Under the pieces are notes generated by a model. It saw nothing but the letters and a program-made list of their open reading frames with translations, had not been told where the DNA came from and did not search any database. Position numbers and translations under genes: made by a program. This document shows positions 1,258 through 11,416 of a stretch of DNA of 17,097 bases, in pieces; position 1 is the stretch's first letter; each line of letters starts with the position of its first letter. Source of the DNA: a virus; the UHGV virus genome UHGV-1592266; one strand, given 5' to 3'.

Positions 1258-1526
1258 TGGGCGGTTCCTTCGTAACCGATGGCTTCTGCAATTTCAGCAA
1301 GTGTCTCTGCACTTTCACCCACTGGCTCATTCATCCAGTCGAAGGAAACAAGCTTACCGCCTTCGATAACGCCGATGTTGAAATCATCACTACCTTGTGT
1401 TTTCAGACCATGCTTGATTGCCTTATCGCGCTTATCGAAGTCAACGCCGTCTGTCGTGTATTCAACTCCATGGCCTTTCTCGTTGCACCACCAGTACTGC
1501 TGAATAACGATGTATGATTTGCTCAT
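1254..1526 (-). CDS. hypothetical protein, 90 aa
   Basis: Full-length track ORF. ATGA overlaps at both ends tie it into the operon. No family recognised. Confidence 0.65.
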   Translation of the reverse strand: MSKSYIVIQQYWWCNEKGHGVEYTTDGVDFDKRDKAIKHGLKTQGSDDFNIGVIEGGKLVSFDWMNEPVGESAETLAEIAEAIGYEGTAQ

Positions 1527-2590
1527 AGCGCGGCTCCCTGTCGTAACTGGTCGGCGAGTTCGAATTCACCATGGTTAGTAAATTCGCCTGCAAGTTTTTC
1601 TCTTAGCTTCATAACGGCTTCCTTTGCGCTTTCGATATCCTTATGGTGCCCTGCGCTGTACTTCTTCCCGTTAAATTGAACGCTTGCTACATATCGCTTA
1701 TCGCGCTTATTCCAATAGACCCCCTTGACACCAGTGGTGTTATTTTTCTGGGTTGGTTTGTTGAATTGATTCTGCGATAGAGAGCAAAGGCGCAGGTTTC
1801 TTATGCTGTTGTCTTTCTTGATGCCATTGATATGGTCGATAGGCTGGGAAGGCCATTCTCCGTAATGTAGAAGCCATGCTAGACGGTGAGCAAAGCACTT
1901 CTTGCCAAACAGCGAAAAGGCGTAATAGCCCTGCCAAGTTTGAGAGCCAATAATTGCTCCTTCCTGACGACCTGCAAAGTTGACTTTCGCGGTAAGAACT
2001 CCAGTTTCAGGGTTGTAGTCAATAAGGTCTCTGATATCGCCAACAGACATGAGCAGATTCTTATTAAGGATTTCAATTTCCTTCTGGAGTGGTTCAGATG
2101 CCTCACGCCTAACTTCAGCCAGGAAAGCATCGGTGGCTGGGGTTTTGTTATCTGACTCCAGCCACTGGTTGTAGTAATAATCGAACATGCCAGTAGGATA
2201 ACCACATCCGCCGTGCACGTGGTCTTTCATAGCAGAACCACACATGCAGTAGTCATTGTCAGTATTACTAATGATGTTGATAAGTTGCTGTGTCCGTTGC
2301 TTCAACATCGCATTCTCCGCCGCCAGCGCCGAAAACTTCTCGTGTGCCAACTTAACAGCTGCATCAGCCTGCTTAATTGACTCAGTCGCTTTCTGGTGGT
2401 CTTCGGCCAGCCCTGCTAAATCAGCCTCCAGTTCGGCTAGGCGTTCATTTAATGCATCTCGTTCATCCAGTAGAGCCAGCACAACCTGAGGTGTTACTTT
2501 CATACGAAATGCCAGCAATTTTTGAGGTGTTGCTACTGTTTCAATTGCTACTGCTGCCTCACGCAGTACCTGATAGTCAATCTTGCTCAC
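1523..2590 (-). CDS. Ea22-like N-terminal scaffold fused in frame to an HNH endonuclease plus AP2 DNA-binding module (355 aa)
   Basis: GTG start in a GTGA overlap with the upstream stop. Residues 1-165 are an Ea22-like coiled coil with CMCGSAMKDHVHGGCG. Residues ~185-335 read GYYAFSLFGKKCFAHRLAWLLHYGEWPSQPIDHINGIKKDNSIRNLRLCSLSQN (HNH_3 pattern), then TGVKGVYWNKRDKRYVASVQFNGKKYSAGHHKDIESAKEAVMKLREKL (AP2 pattern). The tail ELADQLRQGAAL matches the tail of paralogue 2587..3168. Confidence 0.85.
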   Translation of the reverse strand: MSKIDYQVLREAAVAIETVATPQKLLAFRMKVTPQVVLALLDERDALNERLAELEADLAGLAEDHQKATESIKQADAAVKLAHEKFSALAAENAMLKQRTQQLINIISNTDNDYCMCGSAMKDHVHGGCGYPTGMFDYYYNQWLESDNKTPATDAFLAEVRREASEPLQKEIEILNKNLLMSVGDIRDLIDYNPETGVLTAKVNFAGRQEGAIIGSQTWQGYYAFSLFGKKCFAHRLAWLLHYGEWPSQPIDHINGIKKDNSIRNLRLCSLSQNQFNKPTQKNNTTGVKGVYWNKRDKRYVASVQFNGKKYSAGHHKDIESAKEAVMKLREKLAGEFTNHGEFELADQLRQGAAL

Positions 2591-3339: not shown

Positions 3340-3636
3340 TCAGTCATTACTGATAGCGCCATAGCGTGAGCGGTAATTACGCAGGCGCGGGTCGATATAT
3401 TCAGGGAATTTGTCTATTGTCGCTTTTCGCAACGGTCTCATTGCTGTTTCGTTTGTTCGGTCCTTCTCATCTTTTAACGCGAGTTGTATATCGCGTCGGT
3501 ACATCCGTTCTGCTTTTGTTTCTGGTGGCAGATCGATAAACGTGTCGAAATTGTTTTTGATATTTTCCAGCACCTCCGCCTTGGAGCTACCGGAACAGCG
3601 GCGCGGGTCATCCGCACCATACATAGGCGCTGGCAT
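3340..3636 (-). CDS. abc2: Abc2-like protein (candidate anti-RecBCD protein of P22-type recombination modules), 98 aa
   Basis: [18 protein letters not shown]... and ...[12 protein letters not shown] match my memory of P22 Abc2. The position downstream of erf fits. The assignment is from memory only. Confidence 0.55.
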
Positions 3637-3659
3637 AATGGAATCCTTATGTTGCTACT

Positions 3660-4043
3660 TTAGAAGGGAATTGAATCGTCGTATTCAGGATGATTTTGAT
3701 GATTGCTACTTTGCTGCTGTTGGCTGTTTCCTGAGGTTGCAAATCCAATCTTTGCATTCAGTAATTCAAGAGTGATTGATTGACCATTTTGCCCCTGATA
3801 AACATCAACCCTGATGTTTTCTCCGGTAATTTCCACAATGCCACCTTCAACAAGAACACTACGGTAGTAATCCGCTTGCGCTCCCGGCTTGGCAAATACA
3901 ACGGCGCTGTAGTTTGTCCATTCTTTCTTTTTTGTCTGGCGATCGTAATACTGAACGCCAGCACGGATGTTGAATCCGATATTTTCCCCGGCCTGAAACT
4001 CTCTTGCGGGCTTGTTTAGTCTTACAGTAATCGAATGTGCCAT
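3660..4043 (-). CDS. short phage single-stranded DNA-binding protein (127 aa)
   Basis: The internal ATG at 4043 (MAHSITVRLNK...) overlaps the erf stop as TAATG. A Q-rich linker and the C-terminal tip EYDDSIPF resemble the SSB acidic tail (DDDIPF). Confidence 0.75.
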   Translation of the reverse strand: MAHSITVRLNKPAREFQAGENIGFNIRAGVQYYDRQTKKKEWTNYSAVVFAKPGAQADYYRSVLVEGGIVEITGENIRVDVYQGQNGQSITLELLNAKIGFATSGNSQQQQSSNHQNHPEYDDSIPF

Positions 4044-4658: not shown

Positions 4659-4829
4659 TCAGAATGGACATTCCCCAAGGAAATAACGCTGATTTAATAC
4701 TTCGACTCGGGACAAATTAAGGCATACCCGCATTCCTTCGCGGTCGCCATTATGGCGATACCAGAGAGCTTTCTGCGTGTACATGCGTCTCTGTAACTTG
4801 CTCTCCTTCACTGTGGTTGCAAGTGACAT
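4659..4829 (-). CDS. small basic protein, 56 aa, at the arf position upstream of erf
   Basis: Hand-translated: AAGGAG lies 6 nt before the ATG at 4829. Product MSLATTVKESKLQRRMYTQKALWYRHNGDREGMRVCLNLSRVEVLNQRYFLGECPF, TGA at 4659-4661, 10 nt before the erf start. Confidence 0.55.
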   Translation of the reverse strand: MSLATTVKESKLQRRMYTQKALWYRHNGDREGMRVCLNLSRVEVLNQRYFLGECPF

Positions 4830-6178: not shown

Positions 6179-6207
6179 AAAAAAATTGCCCTCACACTGG
6201 AGGGCAA
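6179..6207 (-). terminator. intrinsic terminator inside the pL operon
   Basis: The minus strand reads TTGCCCTC-CAGTGT-GAGGGCAA followed by TTTTTTT: an 8-bp GC-rich stem (6186-6193 / 6200-6207) and a U-tract (6179-6185). Confidence 0.75.
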
Positions 6208-6298
6208 AGAAGATTTCCAATAATCAGAACAAGTCGGCTCCTGTTTAGTTACGAGCGACATTGCTCACATAGCAGACTCGCAAATCTGCTATAGGTGC

Positions 6299-6460
6299 TT
6301 ATTCGCATCGCATGACAACATCAAATTTTTCGAGATTACTTTGTCGCAACAATCCCTCTTCTACGCGGTCAGCTTTTCTATAATTATCAAATTCGAAATG
6401 TTTAATTACTTCTTTCGTTTCTCGCTCTATAACTTCAACAATGTATTTCTTATTCATCAT
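6299..6460 (-). CDS. small hypothetical protein, 53 aa
   Basis: The ATG at 6460 (MMNKKYIVEVIERETKEVIKHFEFDNYRK...) forms an ATGA overlap with the stop of 6457..6735 and follows GGGGGAAG. The longer track start is embedded in the upstream gene. Confidence 0.6.
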   Translation of the reverse strand: MMNKKYIVEVIERETKEVIKHFEFDNYRKADRVEEGLLRQSNLEKFDVVMRCE

Positions 6461-6735
6461 TCTTCCCCCAGGGCCTTGCTGATGGCTGCCTTGGCTCGTT
6501 TGTATTCGGTTAACTCTCTGCACCCTTCGTCATGCTCGTAAAGGAAGACAAGCTCTTGCAGTGCTTCAAGCAAATCAGGAGCTGCTGCTATCAGTAGCGC
6601 ATCCTCCCTTTCATTTCTTGTTGCTGCTTCAATGTATGTGTCACCAATCGTCACACCATGGAACGTAGTCATCATCTCGTTGACGTTTCTAACCGTGTAC
6701 TTCCATTTACCAGGCGTACCCTTAAACTCTTTCAT
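6457..6735 (-). CDS. small protein resembling an Ea22 C-terminal domain (92 aa); paralogue of 7256..7507
   Basis: ATG at 6735 (MKEFKGTPGKWKY...) follows GAGGTG. It shares AAPDLLEALQ and KA..AISKALGEE with ORF 7256..7507. Confidence 0.75.
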   Translation of the reverse strand: MKEFKGTPGKWKYTVRNVNEMMTTFHGVTIGDTYIEAATRNEREDALLIAAAPDLLEALQELVFLYEHDEGCRELTEYKRAKAAISKALGEE

Positions 6736-6738
6736 ATC

Positions 6739-6783
6739 CACCTCTGTTGTTTATGCCAAAAATAAAGGCCGACTATGCGGCCT
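6739..6783 (-). repeat. copy A of a directly repeated ~45-bp linker (terminator plus RBS)
   Basis: The plus strand reads cacctctgt..ttatgccaaaaataaaggccgactatgcggcct. The 33-nt stretch 6751..6783 is identical to 7525..7557, and cacctctgt (6739-6747) is identical to 7512-7520. Confidence 0.9.
6753..6783 (-). terminator. intrinsic terminator (inside linker copy A)
   Basis: The minus strand reads AGGCCG-CATAGT-CGGCCT followed by TTATTTTTGG. The hairpin overlaps the TAG stop of ORF 6782..7252. Confidence 0.7.
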
Positions 6784-7252
6784 AGTAGAATACCCAATTT
6801 TCTGTTTCTTGGTTGTGTCCAAAGTTATATTCAATATCTGGTGTTGATGTATCAATATTCTTCATCCCATCAACAAGAGTTGATACAACAGCCAAATCTT
6901 GTTTGATTCTCATCAAATGGTATTTCTTCCGGCGCAATAAACTTTCAATGGCAAGTTTCTTCGTCGGGAACGCAAAAGATCTTTCTGCATTTTTTGCTAC
7001 TTTCTTAATTGCATATCTATTTCTCCTTTGTTTCCATTCCTGTAACCACTGATTTGGTGCTGGTTTAAAATTAACAATCCAATGCGCAGGAACCAACCAT
7101 GCATAATGCTCTGTCTGATGAAAAGCTATATATTGAAGTGCGAATATTTTGATTCCATCTTCTTCAACTGTCGCTTGGAATCTCCAGAAAACAGGCATTC
7201 CATCATGTTCAGTTTCTGATTCAGGAAAAGGTACGCTCCATGATTTTGTCAT
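6782..7252 (-). CDS. hypothetical protein, 156 aa, AT-rich orphan
   Basis: Full-length track ORF lying between the two linker copies. It has a Trp/His-rich N-terminal half and a basic middle (KQRRNRYAIKKVAKN, LLRRKKYHLMRIK). No family recognised. Confidence 0.7.
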   Translation of the reverse strand: MTKSWSVPFPESETEHDGMPVFWRFQATVEEDGIKIFALQYIAFHQTEHYAWLVPAHWIVNFKPAPNQWLQEWKQRRNRYAIKKVAKNAERSFAFPTKKLAIESLLRRKKYHLMRIKQDLAVVSTLVDGMKNIDTSTPDIEYNFGHNQETENWVFY

Positions 7253-7255
7253 ATA

Positions 7256-7507
7256 TTACTCATCTCCAAGGGCTTTGCTGATTGCTGACTGTGCTTTCGA
7301 TACTTCATCAGGATAATGGTCATTCCAGTTTTGCTTGTATGCCTTGTTTAGCATCGCTTGCAGGGCTTCGAGCAAATCAGGAGCTGCCTCCATCAATCTC
7401 ACATCACCTCGATGGATGGTTGTATCGTCAAACGTGAAATAAACCCCATCATCGTTAAATCCAGCGCCAACAACATTCCATGGCCTTTTCATTCTTCCTA
7501 CTGTCAT
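7256..7507 (-). CDS. small protein resembling an Ea22 C-terminal domain (83 aa); paralogue of 6457..6735
   Basis: ATG at 7507 follows the linker GAGGTG. MEAAPDLLEALQAML and KAQSAISKALGDE match the paralogue. Confidence 0.75.
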   Translation of the reverse strand: MTVGRMKRPWNVVGAGFNDDGVYFTFDDTTIHRGDVRLMEAAPDLLEALQAMLNKAYKQNWNDHYPDEVSKAQSAISKALGDE

Positions 7508-7511
7508 TATT

Positions 7512-7557
7512 CACCTCTGTGTATTTATGCCAAAAATAAAGGCCGACTATGCGGCCT
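7512..7557 (-). repeat. copy B of the directly repeated ~45-bp linker
   Basis: See copy A. The two copies are in direct orientation, 774 bp apart. Confidence 0.9.
7528..7557 (-). terminator. intrinsic terminator (inside linker copy B)
   Basis: Same AGGCCG-CATAGT-CGGCCT hairpin plus TTATTTTTGG, 4 nt after the TAA of ORF 7562..8011. Confidence 0.7.
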
Positions 7558-7561
7558 GAAA

Positions 7562-8011
7562 TTACTTAACCAATGATGCTGCATATTCGATAAGGTAAAG
7601 CTTTGGGGCCAGCCAAATTTTTAACCAAGTCATATTGGTTACTACACCAATAATAAAAATCCCCCACAGAGTCAAAACTACAACCAATGGCATGATAAGA
7701 AGATTAATATCACCTTTGCTATCCCAAACCATTGTCGGCCTGTATTTGGGATTTCCTTTCTCCCATGAATATCCTTCATCACCGATTTTACCTGTCTCAA
7801 CTCTTTGGCACTGCTTCTTCATAAACCAGAAAACCAGTGGGATTGTTAAAATGGCCATTAATGTTTTAATCAGACTGTCAACCATATTCCATAGCAGCAA
7901 CTGATGAACAACATCAGGAATCTGTGCCTGGCTGAATGAAACAGCCGCGTCTATTCCATTACTGGCTTTTTGCAGTAGTTCTACGAGAATCTTGTTTGCT
8001 TGTTCTTCCAT
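7562..8011 (-). CDS. predicted two-pass inner-membrane protein, 149 aa, unknown function
   Basis: Internal ATG at 8011 (MEEQANKILVELLQK...) follows GAGGTTAGAT. Hydrophobic spans are LLLWNMVDSLIKTLMAILTIPLVFWFM and INLLIMPLVVVLTLWGIFIIGVV. The longer track start overlaps the upstream small ORF. Confidence 0.75.
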   Translation of the reverse strand: MEEQANKILVELLQKASNGIDAAVSFSQAQIPDVVHQLLLWNMVDSLIKTLMAILTIPLVFWFMKKQCQRVETGKIGDEGYSWEKGNPKYRPTMVWDSKGDINLLIMPLVVVLTLWGIFIIGVVTNMTWLKIWLAPKLYLIEYAASLVK

Positions 8012-8019
8012 ATCTAACC

Positions 8020-8184
8020 TCAAATAAGTGGTTTGCTGCGAAAATAAATACGTTCCCACCAAGTTCCGTATCTATCTATCCAGTTACACCAATCATCGAC
8101 ATTCCATTTTGTTGTGTCGCATTTTGGCAACTGGCATGAATATCCACCTTCTTTGTAAAGTCGGCGTTTGACTTTCTTGAGCAT
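8020..8184 (-). CDS. small Trp/Cys-rich protein, 54 aa, immediately downstream of N
   Basis: Below the track cutoff, so hand-translated. GAGGTGAGCC precedes the ATG at 8184, and that SD overlaps the N stop. Product MLKKVKRRLYKEGGYSCQLPKCDTTKWNVDDWCNWIDRYGTWWERIYFRSKPLI, TGA at 8020-8022. Confidence 0.6.
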   Translation of the reverse strand: MLKKVKRRLYKEGGYSCQLPKCDTTKWNVDDWCNWIDRYGTWWERIYFRSKPLI

Positions 8185-8192
8185 GGCTCACC

Positions 8193-8525
8193 TCAATCGT
8201 AATAAGCTGGAATTGATTTTCCGCGTTGCTTCTGGCGGCCTGAGCAAGTCACACCCATTTCACTGCGTGGCTTGCTGTACCATGTGCGCTGATTCTTGCG
8301 CTCAATACGTTGCAGGTTGCTTTCAATCTGTTCGTGGTATTCAGCTAGCACCGTAAGGTCTATAGGATTCAGTGCGCTTTCTACTCGTGATTTCGGTTTG
8401 CGATTCAGCGAGAGAATAGGGCGGTTAACTGGTTTTGCGCTTACCCCAACCAACAGGGGATTTGCTGCTTTCCATTGAGCCTGTTTCTCTGCGCGACGTT
8501 CGCGGCGGCGTGTTTGTGCATCCAT
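8193..8525 (-). CDS. N: antitermination protein N, lambda type
   Basis: MDAQTRRRERRAEKQAQWKAANPLLVGVSAKPVNRPILSLNRKPKSRVESALNPIDLTVLAEYH... matches lambda N, including the arginine-rich motif. Only the last ~25 residues differ from my memory of lambda N. Lambda-type boxB sites are present at both nut sites. Confidence 0.95.
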   Translation of the reverse strand: MDAQTRRRERRAEKQAQWKAANPLLVGVSAKPVNRPILSLNRKPKSRVESALNPIDLTVLAEYHEQIESNLQRIERKNQRTWYSKPRSEMGVTCSGRQKQRGKSIPAYYD

Positions 8526-8986: not shown

Positions 8987-10339
<1,353 letters not shown>

Positions 10340-10771: not shown

Positions 10772-11416
10772 ATGACATACGAAAATGACAAATTCCAGGT
10801 TCTGAAGAGCATGAAGGTGCCAGATGATTTTAAATCAAATGGCTTTGTTTATGTGCTTTCTAATGAGTGCATGCCAGGAATTTATAAGATTGGGATGACT
10901 AAGCATTCACCAGAAGTTAGGGCTAAAGAAATTTCAGCCTCTACTGGCGTTCCTAAGCCATTTAAGGTGATAGCAGCCTTTCATTCAAATAATCCCGCAT
11001 CAGATGAAAAACTCATGCATAAAGCCTTTGCAAAAGAGAGGCTTAGTGATAATCGAGAGTTTTTCAAGCTTGAAGATAATGAGCTTTCTGAATCTCTAAA
11101 TGAAATAAGGGCGCTGGTTGGCCCTGAAAGAAATGGCGAGACGGCAGAATACGCAATTTACGACTCATTCATTTCTTTTCGCCATGAAAATGAGCTTGAT
11201 CTTAATGAGGAGCTTATAGAGCAAGGTCTGGGTAGTGTAGTTGGTCATCTTCCTGCGGTGAAAAATTTCCTTATTCGCGCCGGAATTGATTACGCGAAGC
11301 AACTGATAAGCAAATATAACTCATCGATAGTTATTAATACAGATGGCAGTGTGGTGATGGTTAAGTCTCTTGAAGCCCAATGCTTTGATGCGGAGGTTGG
11401 AAATGAGCCTGGCTGA
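10772..11416 (+). CDS. T5orf172/MUG113 (GIY-YIG-superfamily-like) domain protein, 214 aa, inserted between cII and O
   Basis: AGGAG lies 5 nt before the ATG. GFVYVLSNECMPGIYKIGMTKHSPEVRAKEISASTGVPKPFKVIAAFHSNNPASDEKLMHKAFAKERLSDNREFFKL fits the T5orf172 pattern. I recognise no family for the C-terminal ~110 aa. Confidence 0.8.
   Translation: MTYENDKFQVLKSMKVPDDFKSNGFVYVLSNECMPGIYKIGMTKHSPEVRAKEISASTGVPKPFKVIAAFHSNNPASDEKLMHKAFAKERLSDNREFFKLEDNELSESLNEIRALVGPERNGETAEYAIYDSFISFRHENELDLNEELIEQGLGSVVGHLPAVKNFLIRAGIDYAKQLISKYNSSIVINTDGSVVMVKSLEAQCFDAEVGNEPG

Follow-up and report, generated by a model that had tools for sequence, protein, structure and literature searches.

Among the accessory regions of enterobacteriophages, the "Ral" region of the lambdoid leftward early operon was ranked second by Silas et al. 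(bioRxiv 10.1101/2023.04.06.535777), whose 200-gene library includes Ral itself (UDP0087), a relative of the phrog_3054 proteins (UDP0047), and orf184 (UDP0184), which triggers the gop-beta-cII abortive-infection system. The same library holds a 52-amino-acid (52-aa) protein, UDP0149, and an 83-aa protein, UDP0123 (bioRxiv 10.1101/2023.04.06.535777), and forms of both are encoded in the DNA analyzed here, a 17,097-nucleotide stretch of the virus genome UHGV-1592266 (the whole stretch is called the window, and all positions refer to it). Our subjects are two minus-strand open reading frames (ORFs), one of 156 aa (6782-7252) and one of 53 aa (6299-6460). A first-pass annotation, made from the letters alone, had listed them as orphan partner ORFs with no recognizable family. 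The ORFs are present as described there, but neither is an orphan. They match phrog_1636 and phrog_6949, respectively, and are two known but uncharacterized phage accessory genes in the published hypervariable "Ral" accessory region, between N and cIII/kil.

Identity and conservation of the two genes

The 156-aa protein matched the phrog_1636 hidden Markov model (HMM) along its whole length (E = 2.7e-112; residues 1-156 on profile positions 1-156). It is 100% identical to L0079 of phage 933W and to vb_24B_11c of Phi24B, with 99.4% identity to both HK97 gp45 and an unannotated ORF of H-19B; we refer to the gene and its product as L0079. The 53-aa protein matched phrog_6949 (E = 3.4e-40; residues 2-53 on profile positions 1-52) and is identical to UDP0149 from residue 2. 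L0079 DNA occurred in 598 of 5,426 complete Escherichia coli genomes, with up to four copies per genome, and the 53-aa ORF occurred in 90 of the 5,426. For both ORFs and their neighbors, scans of Pfam, NCBIfam, and PADLOC gave chance-level matches only, the one PADLOC-DB 2.0 match being Cas1_II (E = 0.018, 12 bits, likewise at chance level). Literature searches for L0079, vb_24B_11c, HK97 gp45, the PHROG identifier, and the protein accessions found nothing relevant.

Patterns of nucleotide change indicate that purifying selection acts on both ORFs and that both are genuine accessory genes coding for protein. Across 80 IMG/VR loci, which were the best protein matches and hence a biased sample, L0079 existed in 28 DNA versions that differed from the window by 0 to 12 synonymous and 0 nonsynonymous changes. 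The protein was at least 99% identical in 74 of 83 phage records, with the surrounding 1.4 kb of DNA mostly 95 to 99% identical, and full-length homologs in Pectobacterium, Brenneria, Cronobacter, and Rosenbergiella extended the range of identity down to 55 to 57%. For the small ORF, divergent homologs (77 to 91% protein identity) gave nonsynonymous divergence (dN) of 0.07 to 0.19 with saturated synonymous sites. Lack of conservation, which the first-pass annotation had named as a sign of a spurious ORF, thus applies to neither gene.

What had been said of the composition of the 156-aa ORF was borne out. It has the lowest GC content of the left-arm ORFs of at least 100 aa (36.7%, with 29.9% at third codon positions, compared with 45.6% for the window). 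Its product contains seven Trp and six His residues, most of them within residues 1-73, followed by a basic center (residues 61-120; net charge, +13; isoelectric point [pI], 11.1) and an acidic tail (residues 121-156; net charge, −5). The 53-aa ORF has an even lower GC content (32.7%). The proposal that such composition signals recent acquisition did not survive comparison, as the GC content of L0079 was 4 to 12 points below that of its flanks in all nine contexts checked, which span phages of Escherichia, Salmonella, Pectobacterium, Vibrio, and Marinobacterium. Low GC thus characterizes the L0079 family as a whole and does not date the arrival of the gene in the phage studied here.

Cassette boundaries and the post-N junction

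L0079 is a self-contained one-gene unit that is normally the first after N, at a junction used for ral elsewhere. The sequence AAACCACTTATTTGAGGTGAGAT, comprising the last N codons (...SKPLI and the stop) and a ribosome-binding site, lay directly before L0079 in 69 of 79 loci with an identical protein, and a 933W-type spacer followed the gene in 64 loci. The region had been described as a series of repeated cassettes with a cargo slot, and it does consist of exchangeable units with shared boundaries. The corollary that L0079 is the cargo of an "Ea22-C-like" gene finds no support, given its usual place directly after N.

The junction at the 3′ end of N (AAACCACTTATTTGAGGTKAKAT-ATG; 23 to 26 nucleotides [nt]) was present in at least 120 viral contigs, where it preceded at least nine unrelated alternative first genes; it resembles a linker for recombination of the first post-N cassette. 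Among the matches listed, these genes were a 28-aa hyper-acidic ORF overlapping ral (about 55 to 60 contigs), L0079 (about 30 contigs), an 83-aa phrog_2471 gene (14 contigs), a 107-aa phrog_1372 gene (6 contigs), phrog_3054 (6 contigs), a 62-aa DUF7167 gene (2 contigs), and three more with one sighting each. The identity of ral at the junction was confirmed with Pfam PF11058 (E = 1.6e-48). Of 119 junction loci listed, 53 carried ral, 36 carried L0079, and 2 carried both, and ral was found within 5 kb of L0079 in none of the 80 L0079 loci. The locus thus shows variable gene content between conserved flanks, the feature by which Silas et al. recognize accessory regions. The 28-aa ORF (MEEEFEEFEEHPQDVMEQYQDYPYDYDY, phrog_16060; for example, in locus L277) is also rich in Tyr, and its end overlaps the start of ral.

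In the window, the leftward operon transcribed from pL runs on the minus strand and is defined by the antiterminator gene N (8193-8525; Pfam N36), behind which all the cassettes lie. The gene order is N, a 54-aa ORF, the junction, the phrog_3054 gene, a terminator, an 83-aa phrog_1273 gene, and L0079, followed by a terminator, a 94-aa phrog_1273 gene, the 53-aa ORF, a 933W-type spacer with its terminator, and phrog_1376. No complete E. coli genome contained this 2-kb arrangement at 80%, the window contains no ral, and an Rfam scan of the window found no known RNA. The conserved junction AAACCACTTATTTGAGGTTAGAT (8012-8034, minus strand; ...SKPLI, stop, and ribosome-binding site), which in most other phages directly precedes L0079 or the 28-aa ORF and ral, here precedes the phrog_3054 gene (7562-8011, minus strand), which encodes a 149-aa predicted membrane protein and is the first cassette after the junction. 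Between N and the junction, the 54-aa ORF (8020-8184, minus strand) ends in ...SKPLI and a stop, as common N alleles do; the N of the window has a different end (...IPAYYD and a stop). Recombination seems to have left this ORF behind as a remnant of an N 3′ end.

Just after the phrog_3054 gene lies a terminator-like 34-bp sequence (7524-7557, minus strand), and an identical copy (6750-6783, minus strand) overlaps the L0079 stop codon and forms a cassette boundary with an intrinsic-terminator-like hairpin (AGGCCGCATAGTCGGCCT + TTATTTTTGG). This 34-bp repeat, GGCCGCATAGTCGGCCTTTATTTTTGGCATAAACAACAGA, is the terminator-like end of many cassettes in other phages. The two copies, 774 bp apart, flank the unit made up of the 83-aa gene and L0079, and homologous recombination between them could add or remove a cassette. 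The 83-aa gene (7256-7507, minus strand), whose product is near-identical to UDP0123, stops 3 nt before the start of L0079. This pair of genes is rare, being found only in one other viral locus (L195) and in E. coli p11A. In the p11A prophage (L094), the first post-N slot, upstream of the pair, is taken by an Nmad5-family putative nucleotide-modification gene (3394-4017 of that contig). At the downstream end, the window shares with 933W-type phages the junction sequence GAGCAATGTCGCTCGTAACTAAACAGG... (6186-6298, minus strand), which ends in a strong terminator-like hairpin (6186-6207); in those phages, it follows L0079 past a short spacer.

The 53-aa gene and its phrog_1273 partner

The 53-aa gene is translationally coupled in the ATGA fashion previously noted, with the ATG at 6460 overlapping the TGA stop (6459-6457) of its carrier, the 94-aa phrog_1273 gene (6457-6741, minus strand; AAPDLLEALQ...KALGEE). 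As codon 1 is GTG or ATT in many alleles and both the PHROG profile and the published annotation give 52 aa, the start may be the ATG at either 6460 or 6457; from 6457, the gene still overlaps the upstream stop by one base. The two ORFs under study had been called partners. That word fits the 53-aa gene, a constant partner of a phrog_1273 gene, but not the 156-aa gene, which normally stands alone directly after N.

An ATGA overlap with a phrog_1273 gene was seen for the 53-aa gene in 61 of 80 loci. The partner proteins end in ...AI[SRK]KA[LI]G[ED]E and contain AAPDLL[EN]AL, while their N-terminal halves are very varied. Conversely, the genes next downstream of phrog_1273-type genes are very diverse and overlap them by 4 nt in 51 of 79 loci; they include 42-aa and 51/62-aa genes, DUF551-like genes, zinc-finger genes (TraR/DksA-like by eye), and L0079. 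We read the conserved 3′ end of the phrog_1273 genes as pointing no less to a recombination linker than to a protein partnership. The 53-aa gene travels with a phrog_1273 gene as a two-gene module, and its product most likely either works with the conserved C-terminal part of phrog_1273 proteins or is simply coinherited with it. The AAPDLL[EN]AL...AI.KALGEE motif also appeared in contigs assigned to Bacteroidota, Verrucomicrobiota, Bacillota, and many Proteobacteria.

The "Ea22-C-like" label given to the phrog_1273 genes is not supported. Neither the 83-aa nor the 94-aa protein matched Ead_Ea22 (PF13935) among the Pfam matches listed up to E = 1, and neither matched an NCBIfam family. True Ead_Ea22 matches in the window were a 114-aa protein (E = 2.5e-17) and a 355-aa protein (E = 8e-09).

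Superfamily and predicted fold of L0079

A profile search of 1.84 billion representative proteins retrieved 87 proteins, mostly of 130 to 160 aa, that were 20 to 27% identical to L0079. All are unannotated and fall in phrog_13631, phrog_25384, and phrog_1636; the phrog_1636 HMM matched all 72 members tested, and a Pfam scan of the 72 found no common family. Two other proteins from the search, P0079 (940 aa) and P0093, were set aside as repeat or low-complexity proteins rather than informative fusions.

With 20 close homologs, AlphaFold gave a poor model of L0079 (predicted local distance difference test [pLDDT], 59.5), which was replaced by a run with an 89-sequence alignment (pLDDT, 95.5; predicted template modeling score, 0.82). 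In this model, the N-terminal part consists of three long antiparallel beta-strands (residues 19-55), two short helices, and a short strand (83-86), and the C-terminal part consists of a basic amphipathic helix of 33 residues (98-130), followed by an ordered acidic tail. A Foldseek comparison, one of the checks proposed in the first-pass annotation, returned no Protein Data Bank analog of the model. In BFVD, 12 structural matches were significant, all of them uncharacterized proteins from phages of Erwinia, Achromobacter, Delftia, Rhizobium, Tenacibaculum, and Cellulophaga. We infer from the model that L0079 is a small, basic alpha/beta protein with a fold not yet solved.

Positions conserved in distant members are Y/W23, R24, G33, E46, T47, K75, K83/84, K87, R91/92, F93-A94-F95, T97, K98, A101, R108, K109, and F155. 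The best-conserved polar positions of the superfamily are basic (K83/84, K87, R91/92, K98, and R108/K109), and the L0079 subfamily has Q in place of the sole conserved acid, E46; this suggests that L0079 is probably a binding protein rather than an enzyme. That the basic segment binds nucleic acid, as had been proposed from its charge, is plausible on these conservation patterns. L0079 carries no helix-turn-helix or other known DNA-binding motif. Homology to the AP2 or integrase-type three-strand-plus-helix DNA-binding domain was considered, and AP2 homology was rejected by hhalign. Tudor/SH3-like small beta-barrels (PWWP, PipX, and PcrA Tudor) scored below any accepted threshold, with nothing from Foldseek, and are no more than a lead.

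Many distant members carry an H-x3-C-x3-C ... H pattern at query positions 45, 49, 53, and 115, and H45 covaries with C53 in the superfamily alignment, as does K/R45 with V53. In these members, H45/C49/C53/H115 may form a putative metal site. The L0079 subfamily has His at 45, 49, 112, and 146 in place of the His/Cys pattern.

Genomic context of distant homologs

We surveyed the neighborhoods of homologs, as the first-pass annotation had recommended. Placement in early operons recurred. An early operon of the unrelated Salmonella phage NX263 begins with a homolog (64% identity), and in a Vibrio phage, a homolog is the second gene. Homologs in Pectobacterium and Marinobacterium prophages lie in the early-left operon, with the recombination genes on one side and int/xis on the other, a placement repeated in Pseudomonas phage Medea1 and in metagenomic phages. 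In these settings, an orphan DNA methyltransferase or a Lar homolog was often only a few genes away. No neighbor was constant. The gene moves as a single unit, and this mobility argues for a host target over a phage partner. One distant homolog (L089) stands alone between structural genes.

Other features of the window

The window is the early region of a mosaic lambdoid phage. Besides the genes above, it encodes a cI repressor (9388-10020, minus strand; S24 peptidase plus helix-turn-helix) and Erf and Ead/Ea22 proteins. The best matches among phage records were Bas106, HK633, Sf101, and mEp043, with coverage of at most 59% in any record. A 214-aa T5orf172/MUG113-domain protein (E of about 1e-15) is encoded at 10772-11416 (plus strand), between cII and the replication gene O, and Bas106 has the gene in the same place. 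Just downstream of cI and overlapping its end, an ORF at 8987-9463 (minus strand) encodes a signal-peptide-like stretch and coincides with a local GC dip to 0.39; it matched no Pfam, NCBIfam, or PADLOC family and may be a lysogen-expressed moron. The 355-aa protein (1523-2590, minus strand) joins an Ead_Ea22 N-terminal domain to HNH_3 and AP2 domains. A 56-aa ORF (4659-4829, minus strand) encodes a close relative of UDP0168 in the accessory-gene library of Silas et al., so several left-arm genes of the window have already been synthesized and screened.

Possible roles of the two genes

A search for promoter-like sites found one, compared with 5.3 expected by chance. Since L0079 and the 53-aa gene both lie behind N and terminator-like hairpins and lack a convincing promoter, they should be made only upon N antitermination of pL transcription, early in infection or induction. 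The conserved basic face of L0079 (strand 83-87, R91, the K98 helix cap, and R108/K109) would probably bind nucleic acid or a polyanionic host component, and the protein would probably target the host, not phage partners, as a counterdefense or host-takeover factor functionally parallel, but unrelated, to Ral. We tentatively favor this picture of L0079 as an N-dependent, early, host-directed, nucleic acid- or polyanion-binding protein of counterdefense or takeover, while placing it somewhat short of probable; it draws on position, mobility, conservation pattern, and charge rather than on an assay. A bolder version, in which L0079 typifies a new-fold superfamily of early counterdefense proteins that replaces Ral in Shiga toxin phages and HK97 and has spread across phages of Proteobacteria, seems doubtful. 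Under that version, L0079 could, for example, inhibit a restriction system or another nucleic acid-sensing immune system through binding of the effector's nucleic acid substrate or guide.

Several points weigh against a counterdefense or takeover role. A slot shared with ral amounts to guilt by position only, and most of the other occupants are of unknown function too. Among the classical anti-restriction proteins are many acidic DNA mimics, Ocr and ArdA being examples, and L0079 is basic (pI 9.1). The placement of the homolog that stands alone between structural genes is more like that of a lysogen-expressed moron. No paper was found that mentions L0079. L0079 lies outside the 200-gene screen, and its sequence is absent from the supplements of Silas et al. 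and from those of the 2025 follow-up paper. UDP0149 and UDP0123 were screened in wild E. coli and are not among the genes for which a phenotype is reported (bioRxiv 10.1101/2023.04.06.535777), the phenotypes at issue in that listing being counterdefense or lethality.

Other explanations account for part of the same evidence. A DNA- or RNA-binding regulator inside the phage, acting on early transcription, antitermination, or lysis-lysogeny in the manner of Ea22 or Orf63 of the exo-xis region, could well be basic with conserved Lys and Arg residues, sit directly after N in 69 of 79 loci, and come first or second in the early operons of unrelated phages. We regard this as unlikely for L0079, however, because the gene is dispensable for the lambdoid plan (ral or other genes are present at about half of the junction loci), moves among phages with unrelated regulatory circuits, and encodes no helix-turn-helix or other known DNA-binding motif. 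It is quite improbable that L0079, the 53-aa protein, or both serve in defense or superinfection exclusion, shielding the lysogen or infected cell from other phages, as do SieB and Rex of the equivalent lambda region. Genes that lie behind N and terminators without a promoter of their own should be silent in a repressed prophage, and PADLOC matches and membrane or enzymatic features are all missing, even if exclusion would suit the AT-rich, moron-like composition, the distant homolog standing alone between structural genes, and the ability of a membrane protein (phrog_3054) to fill the same slot.

For the 53-aa protein, the question is whether it functions as a subunit, or as an antagonist, of the phrog_1273 protein in a two-protein complex and is not merely coinherited cargo. 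The frequent ATGA overlap with a gene ending in ...KALGEE (61 of 80 loci) and the conservation of the small gene together with the C terminus of its partner, while the partner's N-terminal halves vary, make a complex possible, though on the unlikely side. The same C terminus and ATGA junction precede many unrelated small genes, including L0079, so that a recombination linker fits better than a specific protein pair, and the 52-aa and 83-aa proteins had no reported phenotype singly in the screen of Silas et al. Finally, the idea that AT-rich spacer DNA has given rise to one ORF or both as spurious, noncoding frames is effectively refuted. It could appeal to the very low GC content, the lack of a curated family, and internal stops in the small ORF (3 of 36 distinct DNA alleles; 3 of 67 loci). 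Against this stand the purely synonymous change in L0079 across 28 alleles, a dN far below synonymous divergence in the small ORF, homologs in several genera and a deep superfamily, and an L0079 model with a pLDDT of 95.5.

As the evidence stands, L0079 is an ordinary, well-defined "conserved hypothetical" protein that holds nothing surprising to a specialist. It is nevertheless present in most sequenced Shiga toxin phages, where it is the first gene transcribed after N, and in 11% of complete E. coli genomes, and its slot is a published hot spot for counterdefense genes (Ral) and abortive-infection triggers (orf184). If L0079 does disable a host defense, this would help to explain the host range and spread of Shiga toxin phages and would add a new fold to the antidefense repertoire. 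The useful outputs here are a correct identification, a high-confidence structural model, a superfamily alignment, and a map of the cassette boundaries. A confident model without a solved relative, together with the prevalence of the gene in Shiga toxin phages, makes L0079 a reasonable experimental target.

Comparison with known systems

The closest counterparts of the window's L0079 gene are L0079 of 933W, vb_24B_11c of Phi24B, gp45 of HK97, and the H-19B ORF, which lie in the same operon and are annotated as hypothetical only. In those phages, the gene comes directly after N and has the native ribosome-binding site GAGGTGAGAT; in the window, the phrog_3054 cassette and the 83-aa phrog_1273 gene intervene, and the end of the 83-aa gene takes the place of that site. 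Members of the Ead/Ea22 family (PF13935), such as lambda Ea22, resemble the phrog_1273 genes in being early-left accessory genes of lambdoid phages, but the true Ead_Ea22 domains of the window are elsewhere (913-1257 and 1523-2590), and the 83-aa and 94-aa genes belong to phrog_1273 instead.

The occupants of the slot with described roles are unrelated to L0079 in sequence. The orf184 gene (mEp213 AFM76385.1, phrog_1372) is an alternative 107-aa cargo at the same post-N junction and in the same accessory region; its sequence is unrelated to that of L0079, and its product activates an abortive-infection system of the P4 hotspot. Lambda Ral (PF11058), the restriction alleviation protein, is found at the same junction and is early, N dependent, dispensable, and small. 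Whether L0079 might be a Ral homolog was considered and rejected, with no Pfam match and an hhalign probability of 0.17. Ral is 66 aa long and Cys rich, whereas L0079 is 156 aa long and basic, and the two are almost mutually exclusive.

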